Virus record (IMG/VR): IMGVR_UViG_3300036845_000456
Location: 16,968 to 80,967 of that record
Strand: one strand, 5' to 3'
DNA: 64,000 bases
DNA from: a virus
The notes below the pieces were generated by a model that saw nothing but the letters and a program-made list of their open reading frames with translations, was not told the origin of the DNA and did not search any database. The position numbers and the translations under genes were made by a program. Shown piece after piece: positions 25,495-61,664 of the stretch. Each line of letters opens with the position of its first letter. The stretch's first letter is position 1.

Positions 25495-25584
25495 CGATCA
25501 GCCTGATTTCTATCCCGACTTGCCGCTACCGGCCGACGTGCCGCCGATCTGCACGCACTGCTAACCCGTTTCCTCCCGGACTTG

Positions 25585-25622
25585 CCCTGCCCTGGCCGCA
25601 CCGCTGGGGTGGGGTTTTTTTT
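25585..25622 (+). terminator. Rho-independent terminator of the late operon
   Basis: CCCTGCCCTGGC/GCTGGGGTGGGG stem followed by T8. Confidence 0.75.
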
Positions 25623-31794: not shown

Positions 31795-33366
31795 CTAGGC
31801 GTCCGTCCCGACGTCGATCACGTCGCCCCAAGGCAACGTGCTTTTCAGGTAGGTCACGATGCGAGGGTCGCCATACGCCGCCCAAAGGACGGGCGCCTGC
31901 GGTTCCGGGCCAGGGTCGCCAATCTCAAGATCGGTCAGCGCCACGATCAGCGAGCAGTCTGGATCGTTTTCATCAATCCACTGGAACGCTGGTCGCAAGT
32001 CCGTGCCGCCACGGCCGACCGCCTTGAACTCGACTTGGTCGCCGTCGAGATAGCGATCGACCGCATTGACCCGCGTGTCGTTGTAGACGACCACGGCTTC
32101 CGAGATGATGCCCGCGTCCATCGCCGCCTGAACCTCGTTGCCGACTTTGTTCAGGACGTCGTCAGACATGGACAGCGACGTATCAACAAGAAACGCGACT
32201 TTGTTGATGCCGTCGCGCTGCGTGCCGGGCAGCACGAACCCGGTGTGTGCGAACCGGCGATTCGGTCGGTTCCACGTTTCTGAGCGGCTGGCGCCCGCGT
32301 CGAAAAACTGGCGCATTTCTTCGCGCCAATCCTCGGTCGGCGTCTTGCGCCGCTCAAGTTCCGACTCCCAATGGCCGGGCAAGCAGCCGGCCTTCTTGGC
32401 GAGCGCAGCGGCTTGATGCGCGATGACGTCCCAATGCGCGTCGAGATCGGGGGCCTGTTCAGCGGGCGCGTCGAGCACGCCACCGCAATCCCAAGCCTGT
32501 TGCTCATAGCCGGGGCGCGGCGTAGCATTGCCCTCCCCGTCAGCGTCTGCGTCCTCGCCCACGTCCTCGCCGACGTCAGCGCCGTCGCCTTCGCCTTCGT
32601 TAGTGCCGCCGTCCTCGTCACCGTCGTTGCCCTCGTCGCCGTCTTCGTTTTCGTCAACGTCGCCGTCACCGCCAGCGCCATCGGCACCGTCGTCGGCATC
32701 GCCGTCGTCAACGTCGCCGCCGTCGGCATCGTCCGCGTCACTGTCTGCGTCACCGTCAGCGTTTGCGTCAGCGGCTTCGTCTTCGTCACCGGCATCGCCG
32801 TCGTCACCGTCAGCGTCATCGGCAACGTCGTCGTCAGCGTCTCCGTCTTCGTTGCTGCCAGCGTCATCGCCATCGTCTGCGTCCACGGCATCGTCTTCGT
32901 CACCGCCAGCGTCATCGGCAGCGTCTTCTTGTTGCTGCTGTTGCTGTTCCTCGATTTCCAAGACGCGGTAGATGTCTTCGGTCGCCATGCCGGCAAACTC
33001 GGGACGGTTCAGCACCCAATCGGGGAGCTTGAACCCTTCCGCGAGAATGTCAGGGTTGATCGAATAATCGCACGCCTTGTTCCAACGCAGCGGATCGCGC
33101 CCACGGCGCCGCGTCGAATGGTGGCGGGCATCGTGTTCGCTTTCGTGAACTTGGATGCCTTCCAGGAACTCTTGCGACAACTCGCAAACGAATTGCGGGT
33201 TGTAGTAGTGTTTGATCGAGTCGGTGGCCATGCGTGGAATTGACCAGCATGGCACCGGCTCGACGTTCGCGACCAGCACGCCATAAAACTTGCGTGCTTG
33301 AATGATGGCCGCGCGCGCCTTCATCACCTTGTCTTTGGCGACGCGCTCCATTTCGAGGCGGTTCAT
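31795..33366 (-). CDS. DUF2201-type metallopeptidase-VWA protein with an acidic linker
   Basis: MATD, HESEH (HExxH), WNKACDYSIN, VDTSLSM MIDAS-like motif and GRGGTD. Confidence 0.85.
   Translation of the reverse strand: MNRLEMERVAKDKVMKARAAIIQARKFYGVLVANVEPVPCWSIPRMATDSIKHYYNPQFVCELSQEFLEGIQVHESEHDARHHSTRRRGRDPLRWNKACDYSINPDILAEGFKLPDWVLNRPEFAGMATEDIYRVLEIEEQQQQQQEDAADDAGGDEDDAVDADDGDDAGSNEDGDADDDVADDADGDDGDAGDEDEAADANADGDADSDADDADGGDVDDGDADDGADGAGGDGDVDENEDGDEGNDGDEDGGTNEGEGDGADVGEDVGEDADADGEGNATPRPGYEQQAWDCGGVLDAPAEQAPDLDAHWDVIAHQAAALAKKAGCLPGHWESELERRKTPTEDWREEMRQFFDAGASRSETWNRPNRRFAHTGFVLPGTQRDGINKVAFLVDTSLSMSDDVLNKVGNEVQAAMDAGIISEAVVVYNDTRVNAVDRYLDGDQVEFKAVGRGGTDLRPAFQWIDENDPDCSLIVALTDLEIGDPGPEPQAPVLWAAYGDPRIVTYLKSTLPWGDVIDVGTDA
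32538..32927 (+). repeat. CGYC-NN hexamer array H1 (65 units, one phase), antisense within the VWA gene linker
   Basis: cgtcag cgtctg cgtcct cgccca cgtcct cgccga cgtcag cgccgt ... cgtctt. Confidence 0.85.
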
Positions 33367-33385: not shown

Positions 33386-34417
33386 TTACTGGACAGTCAC
33401 GTCCGAATTTTCGACCGCCCATTTGCTGTAGGCGGCGACGTTGGCCAGCTTGTCATCGCGCGACACCGCGTCGGTCACCGTGAGAACTTCGAATTCACGC
33501 GGCAGCCGCTTGGCGTAGGCGATCACGTTCGGGAATGTCTTCCGGTCAGCAAGTCTGGCGATTGCCGTGCACACGGCGTAACGCTCGCTCGGCTCGCTCG
33601 GCACTTTGGCCGTTGCCGGGCTGGCCAAGATATCGTCAATGTTTGTCAGCGACTGATACATCGCCACAAACGCTTCCATCTCGGACGCCACGGTCTTACC
33701 GACCATTGCGGTGAACGCGCGCAAGCGGCGCGCGGGTGGCTGTTTGATGTAGGGCCCGCAGCGATAGATCGTGCGCGGGTTGGCCGACGCGTTCTGATCG
33801 CCGTCGGCGTCGCGGTACAAGCAATCCGGCCGAAACCGGATGAACGCGACAAGCTCGGGCGCCAAGTTGGTCGCCTTGGCGTGGGCAATCCACGACGGCA
33901 CGTCCACAATCATCGTGTAGTGGGCGAAGCGGCGCCGCAGCGGGACCGGCATCTGAATGACGGCGCGCGAGTCCTTGCTGCGGTTGCCCGCCGCCAGGAT
34001 CACGCAATTGTCGGGCAGCGTGTAGTCGCCGACGCGGCGATCGAGCACGAGTTGCATCATGACGGACATCATTTGCATCGTGCCGGTGTTGATCTCGTCA
34101 ATGAACAACAGCGTCGGGCCGTCGCTGCCGTCAGACTTCGGCAGTTCCTTCGGCGCCAGCCACACCGTCGTGCCGCTGGCGAGATCGGGCACGGGCAAGC
34201 CGCGCACGTCCACGCTTTCGCGGATGTTGGTGTGGAAGGGGATCAACTTACTGGCCATCTTTTGCGCAATCTGATGCGCAAGTTCGGACTTGCCGATGCC
34301 GCTCGCGCCCCACAACATGACGGGCTGGCCTTCGAGCAGGTGCATGATGATTTGATCGACCGCGTCGAGCGCGGTGATCGCGTTCTCGACTTCGAGGTTA
34401 ATGTCGTTGGTAGGCAT
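33386..34417 (-). CDS. MoxR/CbbQ-like AAA+ ATPase
   Basis: GASGIGKS Walker A, LLFIDE Walker B, AAGNR, LRRRF. Confidence 0.9.
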   Translation of the reverse strand: MPTNDINLEVENAITALDAVDQIIMHLLEGQPVMLWGASGIGKSELAHQIAQKMASKLIPFHTNIRESVDVRGLPVPDLASGTTVWLAPKELPKSDGSDGPTLLFIDEINTGTMQMMSVMMQLVLDRRVGDYTLPDNCVILAAGNRSKDSRAVIQMPVPLRRRFAHYTMIVDVPSWIAHAKATNLAPELVAFIRFRPDCLYRDADGDQNASANPRTIYRCGPYIKQPPARRLRAFTAMVGKTVASEMEAFVAMYQSLTNIDDILASPATAKVPSEPSERYAVCTAIARLADRKTFPNVIAYAKRLPREFEVLTVTDAVSRDDKLANVAAYSKWAVENSDVTVQ

Positions 34418-34949: not shown

Positions 34950-35401
34950 GGTGTTTCCTTTCTCGGGTTTGCATCTCGAAGCGGCGCGTGTGCCAAAAAC
35001 GGAGCACGCTTACAGTCATTCGCGACCGTCCCAAAAGCGATGACGTTCACCGCCGCTTGGAGATGCAGCGCGCTCGTAAGCGCGCTGTATTGATTATTTG
35101 CTCAAGTAAATGTTTTGGAGGTTCGTTGCGTTGGCGGCGATTTTGATCGTGTCACGTTGGACATGGTCGATCAGGCTATTGCGGTCGCGTTGGACATTCG
35201 CCAGCACGCACGCCAGACCCGGTGCACTCCGTTTCTTCTCGACGCCTCGGCGCCTTTACTAACCATCACCGGCCTACCGTGATCACCGCGATCCTCGCGC
35301 CTTGCGGCGCTACTGCGGGAACGGCCCTAGCCAGTTCTGGCGCCCGGACTTAAGCCTGCTAAGGTGTCCGGGGAACCCGACCCCCTCCCGGGGGCAACAC
35401 T

Positions 35402-37796: not shown

Positions 37797-38219
37797 TTGC
37801 GCGACGTGTTGATCATCGCGCCGCTGGCGTTCGGCGTCGGATTCTTTATCGGGGATTCCTGGCAAGACTCTGCGCCGGTCGCGGTGTCCAGTGGCGGCCT
37901 CACGATCGTGCAGCGGTTGGCGCCAACGCCATCGTCAACGCCACCGCCATCGCCGACGCCCACGTCAACGTCTACGCCTTCGATCTCGGCCTCGCCCACG
38001 CCGTCGCCAGCGTCAACGTCTCTGTCTGCGGCCACGGCTACGTCATCGCCTCCGTCAACGTCCACGTCAACGCCTTCGCCTTCGCCATCGCCAGCGTCCT
38101 CGCCTTCGTCTGCGGCAGCGTCCTCGCCTTCGTCAACGCGCAATATCTGCTCGCCCGGGTGGCGCGAGAATTTCTATCGCCACGGAGTTCTGCACTGGCG
38201 GTGTCGCTATGGCCGATGA
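37797..38219 (+). CDS. Membrane-anchored protein whose linker is a CGYCNN array
   Basis: Transmembrane N-terminus, P/S/T linker, C-terminal IC..W..WRCR motif; start codon uncertain. Confidence 0.5.
   Translation: MRDVLIIAPLAFGVGFFIGDSWQDSAPVAVSSGGLTIVQRLAPTPSSTPPPSPTPTSTSTPSISASPTPSPASTSLSAATATSSPPSTSTSTPSPSPSPASSPSSAAASSPSSTRNICSPGWRENFYRHGVLHWRCRYGR
37921..38136 (+). repeat. CGYC-NN hexamer array H2 (36 units, one phase)
   Basis: cgccaa cgccat cgtcaa cgccac cgccat cgccga cgccca cgtcaa cgtcta cgcctt ... Confidence 0.9.
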
Positions 38220-38403
38220 TCAATGGACCGCGCAAGACAAGTTGGCCTGCATCGAGCGCGAATTGCGCTACCGGCTGCGCGTCTATCCGCGCCGGGTGGC
38301 CGAAGGCAAAATGACAGAACAGCAAATGCGGCGCGAGATTTCCATCATGGAAGCAATCGTCGCCGATCTGCGGGCCAATGCTGAGAGGGACCGGTTGATA
38401 TGA
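38209..38403 (+). CDS. Hypothetical protein
   Basis: KLACIERELRYRLRVYPRRVAEGKM pattern. Confidence 0.65.
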   Translation: MADDQWTAQDKLACIERELRYRLRVYPRRVAEGKMTEQQMRREISIMEAIVADLRANAERDRLI

Positions 38404-38535: not shown

Positions 38536-38841
38536 CGCCGACGTCCTCGTCAGCGTCTACGCCGACGGCCTCGTCATCGTCATCGCCCACGTCAACGCTC
38601 TCGCCACCGCCCCTGCCTTCGCCAACGTCGTCGCCATCGTCACCGCCCTCGCCAGCGCCAACGTCTTCGCCCTCGGTGCGTCCGTGATCCAGCATCTACG
38701 GCATCGACTATGTCCTCGTTACCGTCATCGTCTCCGTCAATGCCCGCGCTAGAGCCGACGCCACCGCCTACGCCGACGCCAACGCCCTCGTCATCGCCGA
38801 CGCACCGTCAACGCCTTCGCCGACGTCTTCGCCAACGTTCT
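38536..38841 (+). repeat. CGYC-NN hexamer array H3 (~48 units), immediately upstream of RAMP gene B
   Basis: 23 in-phase units, then phase slips, continuing past the stop at 38687; ends ~21 nt before ATG 38863. Confidence 0.9.
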
Positions 38842-38862: not shown

Positions 38863-39519
38863 ATGCAGCGCGCCTACCAAATCGCATTCATCAAAGGCTA
38901 CATCGCGCATCCGTACTGGCCGCAGCGCGAGCGGCTGATCAACATCCAGAAGGAGTCCGGGACCAAGCGCGTGCGCTCGGAGGAAAAGCGCGTCAAGGTC
39001 TTGCGCGACTATCTGGCCACCAAAAACATGAGCATGGCCGATTACGAAGCGCTTGAGGAAGAAGCCGATCGCCAGTTCTATACGGCGGCCGATCTCGACA
39101 ATGCCGACGGCCACGACACGACCGAGATTGTGATCCCGGCGCATCAGATATACGGCATGGCGGCGCAAGCTTGCGGTCTGGCCTCAAGTTCGATCCGCAT
39201 TGCCCGCGCCGAAAATCTGCGCACGGTCCTGACCGTGTCCGACATATTCACCGGCAAGCACAAAGCAGACGGCGTATGGGAGCGTTTCGTCGTCGTCACC
39301 GCTGGCGCCGGCAACAAGCTGAGCAATCAAAGAGCGCTGCGCAGCAACGAGTATGTTGGTCCGTTTCAGGCGACATTTGAAGTGAAGTTCAGCGAGGAAG
39401 TCATCGATCCGAAAAAGGTTGACGATTTTCTCGGCTTCTGTGGCCGCGAGATCGGCGTTGGCGCCAGCCGCAAGCTCGGTTGGGGCCGCTTCGAGATCGG
39501 CAAGGCCAAAGCCAAATGA
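38863..39519 (+). CDS. Stand-alone Cas7/Csm3-like RAMP protein B
   Basis: IVIPAHQIYG resembles the RAMP IPGSSLKG motif; C-terminal Gly-rich loop IGVGASRKLGWGRFEI. Confidence 0.75.
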   Translation: MQRAYQIAFIKGYIAHPYWPQRERLINIQKESGTKRVRSEEKRVKVLRDYLATKNMSMADYEALEEEADRQFYTAADLDNADGHDTTEIVIPAHQIYGMAAQACGLASSSIRIARAENLRTVLTVSDIFTGKHKADGVWERFVVVTAGAGNKLSNQRALRSNEYVGPFQATFEVKFSEEVIDPKKVDDFLGFCGREIGVGASRKLGWGRFEIGKAKAK

Positions 39520-52694: not shown

Positions 52695-54626
52695 ATGGCG
52701 TTCTTGGATCGGCTGCTACGATCTGCAAGCAGGCTTTGGAGTGAATGGCGGGCGCGTGCACGCCATGTGGGGTTCAGGCTGCTTGGCGAGTGGCCGGGGC
52801 CGTGGCAGGATAGGGGCTCGCCCACGCCAGCGCCAACGTCAGCGTCTTCGCTTCCGCCAGCGCCCACGCCAACGCCTACGCCAACGTCGCCGACGTCCAC
52901 GCCATTGCCCGCGCCAACGCCCACGTCGCCGTCTACGCCGACGCCCTCGTCACCGCCAACGCCAACGCCCGAGCCGCCGCCATCGTCTACGTCCTCGTCG
53001 TCGTCCTCGCCTTCGCCTTCGCCGACGCCTTCGTCACCGCCACCGTCCTCGCCGACGTCCACGCCATCGCCCGCGCCCTCGCCATCGTCACCGCCGACGC
53101 CATCGCCAGCGCCAACGCCCACGACTTCGGTCCCGCCATCGTCTACGTCACCGCCTTCGTCTACGTCTACGTCACCGCCAGCGCCCGAGCCGGTGCCAGC
53201 ATCGCTGCTGGCTCCGGTGTTCCAACTCCCGGCCTATCGCAAAGAAAAGTGGGTCACGCCGAAACCGGCCGACATTGCGCCGAAACCGGTCAAGCGCACG
53301 GTGCTGCATCGCACCGAACCCGCCAAGCCGCGCCAGCCAAGACCACAGGCGCCGGTACTGACCGACGATCCCGAGCAGTGGGGTCAATATTACTTCCGCG
53401 ACGCGATCCTCGATCAACTCGATGTCTTTTGGGTCTATCTAAAGCGGATGAAGCGCGGCGACCGCGACAGCTACGATCTATTGCATCAAATCGGCATTCA
53501 GATGGTGCCGTTTTCAGCCACGCATAACTTCGACAAGTGGCTCGGCGGTAGCGAGAACGTTGAACTGTCGCCGTGGTTTCGCCAGCGCCGTCCCAGTTTT
53601 GGCGCCATCGCCTACGGCTTCGATGATATCGCCAAGGCCGAAGATCGCATGACCATCGTGGAAAGCGCAGAAGAACCGCCGGACCATGTTTATGCTGACG
53701 TTGAACAGCGACTGAAAGCCGAAGGGGTTCTCGGCAAGCGTCCGGCTTATTTCGTCGCCACGTCCTACAAGTTCGACAAGCGCATCGAAGATCGGCCGAT
53801 GACGATGTTCACGCCGCGCTTCCTGTATTTTCGCAAGATGCAGCGGACGCCGCCAGAACTCGAACACCTGACTGGTGGCGATACCTATTTCATGTGCGTG
53901 TACTGGGATCGGGCCGACAAAAAAATCCACAAACGGTACCAGAGGCGGCGCGGCGGCATCCCGCAAGAGTATGGTGTATTCATCGAGCATGTGACTGGAC
54001 GCGTGCGGATTCTGAAAACCAAGATACACGAGAAGGTCACGATCAAGTGGTCGAAAGGACCTTATGGCGGCAAGTGTTCAGAACCAACGGAATTCATCAA
54101 CACGCACTGGGACGTGCCTGATCGCTTCCTGCGTTGGACGCATCGCGATATGGGCGACATCGAGCCGGAAGATTATTTGCGCCGCATGTTCATCAACGCC
54201 GCCAATCTATACGAATCGGCGGCGCTCGGCTCGGTGGTGCGCGTTGCCGTACACAAGAACGACTTGACCGCGACATTCGGTGTCGAGATCAGGCGCATGG
54301 CGCATTTCTTCCGCGATCGCGACGTCGCGGTGACGACGAAAGGCAGGCGCCGCCCGGTGCTGCGTATGGTGCGGGCGCACATGCGCAAGAACGGCACCAA
54401 GGTGAAGACCTACTTCAGCGGCATGAAGAAGTTCACCTGGGCTGGCTACAAAGTGGAGATCAGCGTCCCCGGCAAGGATCATTTTCATCTGCCGGAAGTC
54501 AACGTTGGTGCCATCTCGCTCGGCGCCAAAGAGCGCGTTGACGAGCGCGGCTTTCTCACCAATCAGCAATACGGAAAGCTTCTCGTCGAGAAAATGCAAC
54601 AGGGAGCAGGAGTACGCAAACCATGA
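52695..54626 (+). CDS. Large hypothetical protein with an N-terminal P/S/T tract encoded by a CGYCNN array
   Basis: 643 aa ORF with GGAG RBS; C-terminal VRAH.R motif. Confidence 0.6.
   Translation: MAFLDRLLRSASRLWSEWRARARHVGFRLLGEWPGPWQDRGSPTPAPTSASSLPPAPTPTPTPTSPTSTPLPAPTPTSPSTPTPSSPPTPTPEPPPSSTSSSSSSPSPSPTPSSPPPSSPTSTPSPAPSPSSPPTPSPAPTPTTSVPPSSTSPPSSTSTSPPAPEPVPASLLAPVFQLPAYRKEKWVTPKPADIAPKPVKRTVLHRTEPAKPRQPRPQAPVLTDDPEQWGQYYFRDAILDQLDVFWVYLKRMKRGDRDSYDLLHQIGIQMVPFSATHNFDKWLGGSENVELSPWFRQRRPSFGAIAYGFDDIAKAEDRMTIVESAEEPPDHVYADVEQRLKAEGVLGKRPAYFVATSYKFDKRIEDRPMTMFTPRFLYFRKMQRTPPELEHLTGGDTYFMCVYWDRADKKIHKRYQRRRGGIPQEYGVFIEHVTGRVRILKTKIHEKVTIKWSKGPYGGKCSEPTEFINTHWDVPDRFLRWTHRDMGDIEPEDYLRRMFINAANLYESAALGSVVRVAVHKNDLTATFGVEIRRMAHFFRDRDVAVTTKGRRRPVLRMVRAHMRKNGTKVKTYFSGMKKFTWAGYKVEISVPGKDHFHLPEVNVGAISLGAKERVDERGFLTNQQYGKLLVEKMQQGAGVRKP
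52819..53199 (+). repeat. CGYC-NN hexamer array H4 (~62 units)
   Basis: cgccca cgccag cgccaa cgtcag cgtctt ... with one 3-nt slip. Confidence 0.85.
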
Positions 54627-58183: not shown

Positions 58184-58564
58184 GTGAGCGATCTCCTTCA
58201 ACAGCTTGAGGACATGAAGGCCGATTGGGCCAGCAACTCGCGCGAACTGATGGCGCTCAATGCCGAGCTTGGCCCGCTGCAAACGCGCCGCTACGGCATC
58301 ATCGACGCAATCAAGCACACGCATGCTTGTTGCGTGCAACGCGATCAATATGAGCGCCAGCAAGTCTATGTGGTCGGCTACCGTCGTGCCGGCGCGGTCG
58401 AGCGGTTCAAGCTGTTTGCTGATCTCAATGAGATCGACGTCGATCTCGGCCCGCTGAACGTCCAACGCCGTGAACTGCTCAGATTGGATAAATACTTTAG
58501 GTTGACGAGCGAAGCTGTCCGCAAAGCCATGAGTGACGCGGCTAAAGGTTCAACCCGACGATGA
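58184..58564 (+). CDS. Hypothetical coiled-coil protein
   Basis: 126 aa ORF converging on the array. Confidence 0.5.
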   Translation: MSDLLQQLEDMKADWASNSRELMALNAELGPLQTRRYGIIDAIKHTHACCVQRDQYERQQVYVVGYRRAGAVERFKLFADLNEIDVDLGPLNVQRRELLRLDKYFRLTSEAVRKAMSDAAKGSTRR

Positions 58565-58585
58565 TGGATTAGATCATCGCCGGGT
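58553..58585 (-). terminator. Hairpin closing the GGY-NN array (probable terminator or 3' stem)
   Basis: Minus strand ACCCGGCGATGAT-loop-ATCATCGTCGGGT (one G-U pair), just after the last GGCAGGC. Confidence 0.55.
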
Positions 58586-58595
58586 CAATCCCTTC

Positions 58596-60249
58596 GCCTG
58601 CCTTGCCCGGCCATGGCTCGCCTTCGCCCTGCCGTGCCTGACCCGGCATAGCCAAGCCTTGCCTGCCATGCCTCGCCGGGCCCTACCAACCAAGCCTTGC
58701 CGTGCCTTGCCCCGATCACCGGGCCAAACCAAACCATGCCTGCCCTGCCTCGCCTCGACCAGCCGTGCAGCGTCTGGCCCGACCGTGCCGCGACGTGCCG
58801 CGCCTCACCACGCCTGCCGCGTCCACACCATGCCTAATTACGCACTGCCCGGCCCAGCGACATGACGCCATGACGTGCCCGATTGCGCCCTGCCCTGCCT
58901 GCCTTACCGCGCCTTACCAAGCTCTACCTTCGCCATGCCTCTTTGCGGCTCGCCCAGTTGCGCCTTGCCTGCCGTGCCCGATCACGTCACGCCTCGCCTC
59001 GCCAGATTCTGCCGAGCCTTGCCTCGCCCCGCCAAGTCACACCGCCGGACCTAGCCCTACCGAGCCACACAAGCCCCGCCGTACCGCGCCTTGTCACACC
59101 AAGCCAAACCGCGCCTGCCCGGCCAAGCCCCGCCATGCCACAACCTGCTGCGCCGAGACGTACCCTGCCGATCGAGCCTAGCCGAACGCACCGAGCCCTG
59201 CCTGCCGCGCCTTGCCGAACCACGTTACGCCGGGCCATGCCACGCCCGAAGCGCCTATTCTCGCCGGGCCTACCCGTGCCTGCCTTGCCTAAGCCGCGCC
59301 GGGCCACACCCCGCTATGCCAGGGGCTGCCGTGCCGCACCGAGACGCGCCGCCCGAGCCACGCCTGCCATGCCTTGTCCGGCGTGCCCCGGCCGGGCCCC
59401 ACCTTGCCCCGCCGTGCCTGCCTAGCCTGACCTTGTCCAGCCGAGCCGTGCACGGCCCCGCCTGACCTAATCCGGCGTCGTCCTGCCGAACCGCGCCACG
59501 CCTGCCCCGCCAAGCCCTGCCCGGCCATGCCACATCCGAGCCTCGCCTCGTCTTGCCGCGCCTCGCCTGCCATGCCTGCCCTGCCTTGCCGCGCCTTGCC
59601 GCGCCCTGCCAGACCCGACCCGGGCAGGCCCCGCCTCGCCTCGCTGGACCTTGCCTGCCTCGCCAGGGCAAGCCCCGCCTCGGCAGGCCCTGCCGCGTCA
59701 TGCCCGGCCTCGCTATGTCAAGCCGGACCGCGCCTTACCGCGCCTGCCTCCCGCGACAGGCCGCGCCGTGCCATGCCTCTTTTCGCCCAGTGTGACCTTC
59801 CGTGCCACACCAGACCGCGTCTCACCGCGCCTCGAAGCGCCGCCCAGTGCTCGCCTGCCCTGCCTCGCCTACGCCAGACCGCGCCTTGCCGCGACGTCAC
59901 AGGCCCGACCGCGCCCGGCCATGCCACGCCTGCCTCGCCACGCCTAACCCCCTTCGGGCCCGGCTACGCCTCGTTGCGTCAAACCGGGCCACGCCTTGCC
60001 TGCCTCACCAGACCACGCCTTGATCCGCCATGCCTGACCGTATCTCACCCCGCCGCTGAAACGCCCAGTCACGCCACGCCTGCCATGCCTGCCCAAGCCA
60101 AGCCCGCCCATACCCCGCCGCTGCCCGGCCTCACCGAGTGCGCCGGGCCCTGCCATGCCGGAACACGTCCCGCCTGCCATGCCTGAACTCGTCACGATGT
60201 GACGCCACGTGCCATGTAATACCCCGCCTCGCCTCGCCTGCCATGCCTG
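58596..60249 (-). repeat. Non-coding GGY-NN pentamer array, ~21 units delimited by GGCAGGC; candidate guide-RNA array
   Basis: Example unit (59574-59659): GGCAGGC AA GGT CC AGC GA GGC GA GGC GG GGC CT GCC CG GGT CG GGT CT GGC AG GGC GC GGC AA GGC GC GGC AA GGC AG GGCAGGC. Starts ~5 nt after the accessory gene stop. Confidence 0.9.
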
Positions 60250-60254
60250 ATATT

Positions 60255-60791
60255 TCATCCCGGTGGCGGCGCATGCGTTTCACCGTCCTTGCCGCCACGT
60301 CGCCGCGACGGTTTGATCCGCGCACCCGCCGCAACAATGTGTTGTAAGCCGGTTTCGAGTTGTTCTGATAGGCCGGGGAAGCGTTGGTCGAGAAACATCG
60401 CCATGTTGCGCAGTCGTGTGATAACGTCACGACATCGCTCGATCCCGTCAGCAACAACTTCCTTGGCTTGCGTAACCGTCAGTTCCGGCGCAGACAAATC
60501 AAGATAGGATTGACTGCGTTTCGGCACAAACGGATCACGAACATAAACCACCGACGAGATCGTCATTGGTGTATCAACAACAACAACAGTGACGAAGCGG
60601 AGTAGTTTGCGTGCTCGGTCAAGCCGTTGCCGGTGTGCCGCGACGTGATCATCCCAAATGAATTCCTTGTGTAAGGGATGATCCTTTGCGCGCGCGGCCT
60701 CAACGATCAGTTGGGGCGAAAGGCGGCCGCGATTTTTCTTGCGGATGTCCGCCAGTGCCTTGTGGACGCGCGCTTGCCGGTGCGATCTCAT
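60255..60791 (-). CDS. RAMP-associated accessory protein
   Basis: GRLSPQLIVEAARAKDHPLHKEFIWDD..AA...R..RAR.L conserved motif; lies between RAMP A and the array. Confidence 0.75.
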   Translation of the reverse strand: MRSHRQARVHKALADIRKKNRGRLSPQLIVEAARAKDHPLHKEFIWDDHVAAHRQRLDRARKLLRFVTVVVVDTPMTISSVVYVRDPFVPKRSQSYLDLSAPELTVTQAKEVVADGIERCRDVITRLRNMAMFLDQRFPGLSEQLETGLQHIVAAGARIKPSRRRGGKDGETHAPPPG

Positions 60792-60797
60792 GACGGT

Positions 60798-61664
60798 TTA
60801 CTCCGTGCCAATATACTCTGCGTCAGAGCCGTTGCCGCCGCGTTCAACGATCGTGCGGCTGGTGGCTGGCAACGCTAGATCAACATCAGCAAGCAGACCG
60901 TCCATCTCACGACGTTTCACTTCCTCATTGAACCACATCAAGATGTCGGCTGTGTCCTGATCAAAGAAAACCGGCTTTTCATAAGCCTTTTGCTGGACCG
61001 CGCGACCTTGCAGTTTGACCACGCTGCGGAAGTCGGCGTCATTATCGGCAACGATCTTGAACGAGCCGTATGGGCCGCCACGCTCGCCACGCCAATCGCC
61101 GATACCAACGATCACGCCGGCTGCTCCGAGCAAGTTACTGATCGTTCGCTCGCTTAGTACGTTCTTCATGTACTGGATCGAAATGCGACACGCCCACTGT
61201 GGAAAGATCGGCCGCGTGCGCACATCCGGCGTCCGATTCATGTCAGAATTTCGAACCATCGCAGAAAAGATTTGCGGCACGCCATATAAGTCGATGGTGA
61301 CATCCATGATTTTCGTCAAGCGCTCGATTTGCGCGCGCTTGGCGCCAGGAATATCGATCGCCGCTTGTGCCAAGCTCCCATGCAAGGCGCCATTGGGAAC
61401 GTGAAACAACGTCTTTTCTGGTTTGCGGCAGAGATAGAACGAACTGCGATATTCCTTGAGCGGATCATGCTTGAGCCGCTGTTCCAAACTGGCGCGGTTC
61501 TGTTGCGGTGATGGCAAAATCAGTTCCTGCCAAGCCTTGAACGGAAACCGGTGCATGATCAGCGGCGACGTGCCAAGCAAGTTGGCGCGCACTTCGCCCA
61601 TTTTGATCTCTTGGACTTCGATTTGCGTCGTTTCGGTCTTTTTACGTGCCGGTGCTTTAGCCAT
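60798..61664 (-). CDS. Stand-alone Cas7-like RAMP protein A
   Basis: N-terminal L.GTSPLIMH, HVPNGALHG, VR..DVRTRP.F..W, and Gly-rich loop AGVIVGIGDWRGERGGPYGSF. Confidence 0.8.
   Translation of the reverse strand: MAKAPARKKTETTQIEVQEIKMGEVRANLLGTSPLIMHRFPFKAWQELILPSPQQNRASLEQRLKHDPLKEYRSSFYLCRKPEKTLFHVPNGALHGSLAQAAIDIPGAKRAQIERLTKIMDVTIDLYGVPQIFSAMVRNSDMNRTPDVRTRPIFPQWACRISIQYMKNVLSERTISNLLGAAGVIVGIGDWRGERGGPYGSFKIVADNDADFRSVVKLQGRAVQQKAYEKPVFFDQDTADILMWFNEEVKRREMDGLLADVDLALPATSRTIVERGGNGSDAEYIGTE

Follow-up and report, generated by a model that had tools for sequence, protein, structure and literature searches.

The window analysed here is a stretch of 64,000 nucleotides, positions 16968-80967 of the 80,967-bp viral record IMGVR_UViG_3300036845_000456, which comes from a soil phage and was judged complete. 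Within it, a minus-strand gene for a protein with a VWA-like domain (the host gene) carries an array of hexamers that is read on the plus strand as CGYC-NN, four largely fixed bases followed by two variable ones. We refer to this array as array A, and compared it with arrays B, C and D, which have the same code and are found in the same window as the gene for RAMP B, a predicted Cas7-like protein. The host protein matched PF13203 (DUF2201_N) at residues 13-199 (E=7e-32) and PF09967 (VWA-like) at residues 390-518 (E=2e-19), and array A lies in the acidic linker between these domains. The gene directly upstream encodes an AAA_5-type ATPase, which is the usual partner of a DUF2201_N/VWA protein.

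The six-base pattern of array A

When cut into hexamers on the plus strand, array A gave 65 units in one phase, with a unit of six bases in 65/65. Positions 1 and 4 each have C in 61 units and T in the other 4, G occupies position 2 throughout (65/65), and position 3 varies between T (42), C (15) and G (8); strict CGYC was found in 49/65 units. The variable NN has an entropy of 3.36 bits with 13 distinct NN, and deviant units occur only singly or in twos, between runs. The original prediction had described such in-phase hexamers with the plus-strand array consensus, translated on the minus strand as D/G-x repeats in the linker of the VWA gene, and both descriptions were confirmed, the latter by the codon pairs below and by the Pfam domains.

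In the frame of the host gene, array A is a series of codon pairs (Gnn)(GAC/GGC/GCC/AAC). The second or locked codon is GAC in 38 pairs, GGC in 15, GCC in 8 and AAC in 4, and ends in C in 65/65, whereas the last base of the first or free codon is T in 31, A in 13, C in 13 and G in 8. The earlier statement that every second codon is GAC, GGC or GCC, and that the alternate codons often end in T or A, is accurate for 61/65 locked codons (the rest being AAC) and for 31 + 13 of 65 free codons. Given the residues and the codon usage of the phage (GAC 54%, GGC 58%, GCC 35%), the probability that 65/65 locked codons end in C is ~1e-18.3. The synonymous choice also depends on the phase when single residues are compared: Asp is encoded by GAC 38 and GAT 0 times at locked positions and by GAC 6 and GAT 9 times at free positions (Fisher p=1e-6), and the same test gave p=1e-4 for Gly and p=2e-6 for Ala.

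Two null models of 5000 draws were used, in which either the codons of the same protein were redrawn or the same codons were placed in shuffled order. In this comparison 48 in-phase CGYC units were observed, against 26.4 +/- 3.5 (maximum 38) for redrawn codons and 31.2 +/- 1.8 (maximum 42) for shuffled codon order, and 0/5000 draws reached the observed count. The original prediction had stated that a reproduction of the periodicity by codon-shuffled acidic linkers would speak against it, and no such reproduction was seen. The codon choice in array A is not explained by its residues and the genome codon usage.

One deviant pair of units at 32871-32882, 'cgttgc tgccag', corresponds to the residues T-N in GGTNEG. 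The peptide GGTNE is kept in the window protein and in 3/4 of its close orthologues (it is absent from P0003), in a surrounding linker that varies, and this pair could be a punctuation mark of the array or a motif of the protein.

Table 1. Position and strand of the features discussed, in window coordinates.
Feature	Position	Strand	Description
Host VWA gene	31795..33366	-	523 aa; DUF2201_N metallopeptidase-like domain, acidic linker, DUF2201 VWA-like domain
Array A	32538..32927	+	65 CGYC-NN hexamers; minus-strand translation is a (G/A/V/D/E)-(D/G/A/N) dipeptide repeat
AAA+ ATPase gene	33386..34417	-	AAA_5/MoxR-like; directly upstream of the VWA gene, same operon
Array B	37921..38136	+	36 units of the same code; S/T/P frame open in a small plus-strand ORF
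Array C	38536..38838	+	~41 units; a +1 phase change, hence not one reading frame; ends at the RAMP B ribosome-binding site
RAMP B gene	38863..39519	+	218-aa Cas7-like protein (AlphaFold2 and Foldseek prediction)
Array D	52819..53187	+	~62 units, in frame as a P/S/T linker inside the 643-aa ORF
643-aa ORF	52695..54626	+	array D near its N-terminus; starts 18 nt after an AAA_25 helicase-like gene
GGY-NN pentamer array	58540-60300	-	next to RAMP A, in the canonical pentamer locus at 58.5-61.7 kb
RAMP A gene	60798..61664		the other RAMP of the phage

A plus-strand code shared by four arrays

Across the whole 80,967-bp record, CGYC-NN stretches were found on the plus strand only, with 66 five-unit matches in forward and 0 in reverse orientation. 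At a threshold of 7 of 8 units, the only stretch in the genome beyond arrays A-D was one of 8 units on the plus strand at genome positions 513-560, 16.4 kb before the window. The minor units CGGC and TGYC are present in every array, and the NN entropy is similar for array A, array B (3.34 bits) and array D (3.53 bits).

Arrays B and D can be read in their own coding frames, and each has a lock of the same kind. In array D the G at position 2 of the hexamer is the invariant third codon base, in 12/12 and 50/50 units on the two sides of its single phase change (62/62 ending in G); this change is a slip of 3 nt and leaves the frame intact. The free third base, N5, is A in 18, C in 14, T in 10 and G in 8, and codon choice depends on the phase for Pro (p=2e-5) and Ser (p=2e-7). 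The same G is the invariant third base in array B (36/36). As the locked codons end in C in array A but in G in arrays B and D, and these bases coincide on the plus strand, no translational explanation fits, and the constraint acts on the nucleotides of the plus strand rather than on the protein. The nucleotide-level constraint proposed in the original prediction is upheld by the codon-phase statistics (P ~1e-18) together with this recurrence of the lock in the frames of B and D.

The variable bases point in the same direction. N5 is 45% A both in array A and in arrays B, C and D taken together, when A/T make up only 13% and 17% of third bases genome-wide. NN pairs of G/C only are found in 6/65 units of array A, where ~21 were expected from the usage of its 28 Ala and Gly codons, and in 6/117 units of arrays B-D; the deficit is significant in array A. 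A rule that NN is never GG was considered and dropped, because it was not significant in arrays B-D (~1.7 expected and 0 seen, by arithmetic on the counts). Array A very probably obeys the same nucleotide-level code as the other arrays and does not owe its pattern to chance at the protein level.

In relatives from four soil runs, with flanks ~95% identical, array C has one extra whole unit, CGCCAG, at 38619, and several array segments have been replaced. The 643-aa ORF that contains array D gave no Pfam match. A strong plus-strand terminator-like hairpin of 13 pairs was observed at 35062-35091, where the minus-strand and plus-strand early blocks diverge.

RAMP B and six-base arrays in other phages

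The AlphaFold2 model of RAMP B had a mean pLDDT of 97, and its top Foldseek matches were type VII Cas7, Csm3, Cmr4 and Cas7-11 (E ~4e-7); the confident model predicts that RAMP B folds as Cas7. Its homologues fall into 132 clusters. RAMP B homologues with 33-64% identity are encoded at 18 other viral loci, and period-6 arrays lie directly beside nearly all of them, 29 of the 31 arrays being co-oriented with the RAMP B gene. In five whole records with RAMP B homologues, every 6-unit match was on the strand of the gene. The fixed motif is CGCC-nn by the closer homologues and TGGC-nn by the most distant, which suggests, at the level of sequence comparison, that the protein and the fixed motif have changed together. 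TGGC-nn arrays of period 6 were seen downstream of RAMP B homologues of 33-36% identity at L099:10601-10857 and L101:10644-10936.

We also scanned viral contigs for at least 10 perfect CGYC-NN units and examined the first 80 loci listed. Among these, 76 were simple repeats with an NN entropy <2 bits and only two had a high NN entropy (2.9 bits); both adjoin RAMP B homologues, and the remaining 78 were without a RAMP B match. One 12-unit complex stretch was found in a P/S linker of an incomplete record (54% complete) without a RAMP B match, so short runs alone are not diagnostic. Array A, too, is a complex array of this family (CGYC-NN, elsewhere TGGC-NN), and its genome encodes RAMP B. We infer that the CGYC-NN code belongs to RAMP B.

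Arrays in coding sequence were also observed among the relatives. In L084-L086, arrays are embedded in sense in long ORFs. L084, whose RAMP B is 63% identical (L084:6054-7535 and L084:7941-9467), has a protein that is RecT-like by eye with a 31-unit sense array as a P/S/T linker, a 508-aa protein that holds ~99 array units, and a homologue of the small gene at window 38200..38403 that reads into the array preceding RAMP B. At L092:5285-5464, a 30-unit array lies on the opposite strand to RAMP B and in sense with the minus-strand operon around it; its neighbours are a 495-aa ORF on one side and, on the other, a small ORF that contains paired Cys motifs.

The acidic linker in homologues and close orthologues

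An acidic linker of 90-170 aa was found at the same interdomain place in 46/46 homologues of the host protein, which indicates that it is ancestral to the DUF2201_N/VWA family and that array A is a rewriting of the linker rather than an insertion into a linker-free gene. The earlier suggestion that array A was the product of an array-seeding mechanism has to be modified in this sense, as pure insertion does not hold and a rewriting of the linker takes its place.

The codon alternation is not a property of such linkers. Dependence of the third base on codon parity was seen in 0/72 homologous viral linkers, with a minimum p of 0.016 compared to 6e-16 here, and it was absent (p=0.3-0.8) from three unrelated acidic linkers that match at the DNA level, from a halovirus VWA protein, an Erwinia jumbo phage and a Rhizobium phage. 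Other acidic linkers match the array A linker at 67-72% DNA identity. No RAMP B homologue was detected within 10 kb of 83 VWA loci (0/83), nor in five whole records including one complete 100-kb genome (0/5), in a search that returned the RAMP B of the phage's own genome with E=1e-100 as the positive control. The original prediction had called for comparison with linkers from phages without RAMP B, and the 6-nt phasing is absent from these. A metagenome scan with low-complexity peptide patterns gave one distant locus.

The protein itself carries the mark of the array. D/(D+E) in the linker is 0.70-0.80 in four close orthologues (P0001-P0004) compared to a mean of 0.50 in other homologues, and the share of GNN-encoded residues is 0.74-0.83 compared to 0.64. 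The overprint has visibly bent the composition of the linker protein.

For the four close orthologues, only protein sequences were compared. Their linkers are 42-76% identical, with many indels that mostly comprise even numbers of residues, whereas the flanking domains are 78-100% identical. Glu and Val, which cannot be encoded by GRC, are almost confined to one parity in all four; P0001 has 11 E and 6 V at one parity and 0 at the other, and P0003 has 17 E and 6 V against a single E. Since replacement of Asp by Glu is conservative and Glu is common at the free positions, its absence from the locked positions argues for continuing constraint. With a synonymous site held constant and the pattern retained in orthologues that have diverged, the constraint is on the nucleotides themselves, and we consider it probable that this constraint is functional in place.

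Discussion

On the opposite strand a CGYC-NN array becomes (GNN)(GRC), a frame in which no stop codon can arise and in which V, A, D, E or G always alternates with D or G. As this gives an acidic, glycine-rich and flexible peptide, the genetic code permits an antisense overprint of the array at no cost. The unit itself keeps four of the six frames of a CGYC-NN array open, and in the sense S/P frame, too, the fixed site is a synonymous one. For these two reasons the plus-strand ORFs 32371..33243 and 32528..32971 were rejected as genes antisense to the VWA gene. An (Arg-X)n frame was also discarded, as it would account for C1 and G2 but not for C4 or the codon bias.

Our best reading is that array A is a copy of the RAMP B-type six-base array code that was overprinted antisense on the ancestral acidic linker and that nucleotide-level selection maintains. 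As to what is selected, a role as a plus-strand guide store is our tentative first choice, by analogy with the VIPR systems. In VIPR, small RAMP protomers hold the fixed GGY of a five-base unit, present NN to DNA and skip every third base of the target (bioRxiv 10.64898/2026.04.26.720920, 10.64898/2026.04.26.720927). By the same logic, protomers of RAMP B may hold the CGYC of each unit in a plus-strand RNA, leaving the NN pairs exposed. Array A would then be an additional guide store with a plus-strand transcript, antisense to the VWA gene, and its DNA would code for the linker as well; a flexible peptide and a programmable guide RNA would thus be specified by one DNA stretch.

Several observations weigh against such a role. 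Array A is the only array found antisense to the local genes; the other arrays checked (B-D, the long-ORF arrays of L084-L086 and that of L092) are co-directional with theirs. Promoter scans gave no sigma-70-like plus-strand promoter near array A, a strong terminator of 13 pairs at 25584-25615 closes the upstream plus-strand (structural) operon, and no RNA run was found to contain the array A stretch. Exact 7-unit NN matches were sought with skip rules 0-3 in the phage genome and 104 loci (L001-L104), 3.2 Mb of related DNA; they were at chance level, in a set outside of which the likely targets (the host and rival phages) lie, and the skip-4 counts include the match of each array to itself. 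No motif was common to the 5' leaders of 12 RAMP B-adjacent arrays, and no conserved leader or tail was seen; when the flanks of arrays A-D were compared by eye on both sides, they likewise had no 3' tail in common. Our literature search found no VIPR guide with six-base units or inside coding sequence. The NN profile of array A correlates with that of B-D at r=0.30 only, compared to 0.58-0.71 among B, C and D, and array A is more degenerate, with 16/65 deviant units compared to 5/62 in array D. The make-up of its N6 and Y3 follows the needs of the protein: Y3 is T in 65% of array A and in 38% of the other arrays, and N6 differs as well. The preference for T at Y3 (Asp) and the avoidance of A at N6 (Val) are explained by the protein, and they lower the NN correlation. 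Finally, the minus-strand VWA mRNA necessarily carries the complement of the code, so that the composition is accounted for just as well by an anti-array or decoy role.

An origin by spill-over with no function of its own is a rather unlikely alternative to selection for a guide store. Unit-wise slippage, or short gene conversion from arrays B-D in direct orientation, would have rewritten a GAC-rich linker and been tolerated because the product was still acidic. The ancestral linker, the hypervariability of the arrays with changes of whole units in relatives, and the mostly even indels of the orthologue linkers all agree with this, as does the single genomic orientation of all arrays, which direct-repeat exchange requires. 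However, there is no sign of recent copying from B-D into A, as the longest substring common to them is 16 nt compared to 16.5 +/- 2.0 for unit-shuffled arrays, and no higher-order internal repeats were found in array A from NN identity at lags 1-16. The adaptation of Y3 and N6 to acidic coding indicates that array A was not simply imported. Moreover, Glu is still missing from the locked positions in orthologues that have diverged by 10-22% in the flanking domains, and for this a purifying force must continue to act.

The selected object could also be the minus-strand VWA mRNA or the duplex DNA, acting as an anti-array, decoy or target, which we regard as improbable. The mRNA is bound to exist wherever the gene is expressed; as (NNGRCG)n it is complementary at 4/6 positions to every plus-strand array transcript and could pair with pre-guide RNA or bind RAMP B complexes as a sponge or regulatory target. 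No extra promoter would be needed, as array A is antisense to all other arrays and in sense with its own operon; its A-rich plus-strand N5 gives, on the other strand, a U-rich position that complements the typical N5 of B-D, and decoy use of VIPR guides has been documented for satellites. Against this, the fixed bases would by analogy with Vipr be held by protein and not be free to pair, and array A matches B-D no further than the code itself gives, since the common substring is at the unit-shuffled level and the NN strings share nothing more. In a period-3 reading of array A, its guides would have to contain GY at every second NN, and those of B-D do not; the guides of RAMP A, the other RAMP of the phage (six clean runs of 7-12 units in its pentamer array), gave no matches to the phage's own genome above shuffled guides under a 1-nt skip rule. 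The earlier proposal of array A as a target of RAMP B fares accordingly: in a period-3 reading the guides of B-D do not fit A, and only the code itself is common to them. As to the earlier interpretation as a whole, the nucleotide-level constraint stands, and the evidence found does not separate a guide, a decoy or target, and a seeding product.

That array A is an ordinary acidic linker, with an alternation due to chance or to effects on translation or mRNA and unrelated to the arrays, is strongly disfavoured. Acidic linkers are universal in the family, others match this one at the DNA level, and complex stretches of 12 units occur in linkers of the incomplete record without a RAMP B match; but the alternation is seen in 0/75 comparison linkers, redrawn or shuffled codons never reach the observed value, and a translational cause cannot give an ending in C in array A and in G in B and D that coincide on the plus strand. 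Recent expansion of an undecayed microsatellite with a unit of six (or 12 to 48) bases is least credible and is refuted by the difference in decay between its two synonymous sites, the free one being fully scrambled and the locked one invariant: although Tandem Repeats Finder reported periods of 6, 12, 30 and 48 over array A, the matches of 63-68% are by our estimate about what the fixed bases alone would give, the NN identity at lags 1-16 (0.03-0.18) scatters around the 0.11 expected from composition, and the true simple repeats among the listed viral-contig loci have far lower NN entropy than array A.

More generally, a six-base VIPR-like guide system might store part of its guides in protein-coding genes, as its code is stop-free and compatible with linkers both in a sense frame (S/P-T/A) and in an antisense frame (D/G-x); we regard this as possible but doubtful. 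Such arrays may be overprintable on disordered linkers, with the antisense case in the VWA protein and sense cases in the helicase-adjacent ORF and in the RecT-like gene of a relative. If array A is functional, it would be the first case known to us of a programmable guide-type repeat array that shares its DNA with a protein linker on the opposite strand. In that event VIPR-like guide repertoires could be hidden in genes and invisible to searches of intergenic regions only, some odd low-complexity linkers of phage proteins could have been shaped by selection at the RNA level, and array A would offer a concrete object that can be recoded, with the same protein and the code destroyed. Even without a role of its own, array A shows that a six-base code can rewrite the linker composition of a conserved protein.

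Comparison with known systems

The linkers of DUF2201_N/VWA-like proteins (MoxR-associated, CobT-like) share position, length (90-170 aa) and acidity with the linker studied here, whereas the latter has almost only GNN codons, a strict period of two residues and a fixed synonymous site that none of them share. Overprinted or dual-coding regions of phages are alike in that one DNA stretch is under two independent constraints; in array A, however, the second constraint is not a second protein frame.

Cas7 steps along its RNA by six nucleotides. CRISPR arrays with Cas7 backbones (types I, III and VII) share with the present system the predicted Cas7 fold of the partner protein, but here there are no long repeats and spacers and no other cas genes, and the information consists of two bases in every six.

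Solo or orphan vrRNAs of phages and satellites are, like arrays A and D (6 kb and 14 kb from RAMP B), located away from their effector (bioRxiv 10.64898/2026.10.15.759431). The published ones are non-coding (in satellites), keep the vrRNA tail and have predicted targets, and array A has none of these features.

The phage also encodes RAMP A next to a GGY-NN array in a canonical pentamer locus. On an unrelated viral contig (L024:5751-6395), a RAMP A homologue (28% identity, E=4e-19) was observed ~4 kb from a VWA homologue.

The closest likeness of the six-base arrays is to VIPR itself. Published VIPR unit variants are all of five bases (GGY/NN, NNNGG, YNNNG and NNNNG), and the arrays have 9-16 units followed by a conserved structured 3' tail. 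The present system differs in its six-base unit with CGYC fixed and its runs of 36-65 units, in the location of array A inside coding sequence and antisense to it, and in being known from sequence and predicted structure only. Both are phage-borne, with tandem units made up of a fixed motif and a hypervariable NN in alternation, and in both the content turns over fast between close relatives. Vipr is a small single-RRM Cas7-like protein, and RAMP B, encoded 6 kb from array A, is predicted to be Cas7-like too.

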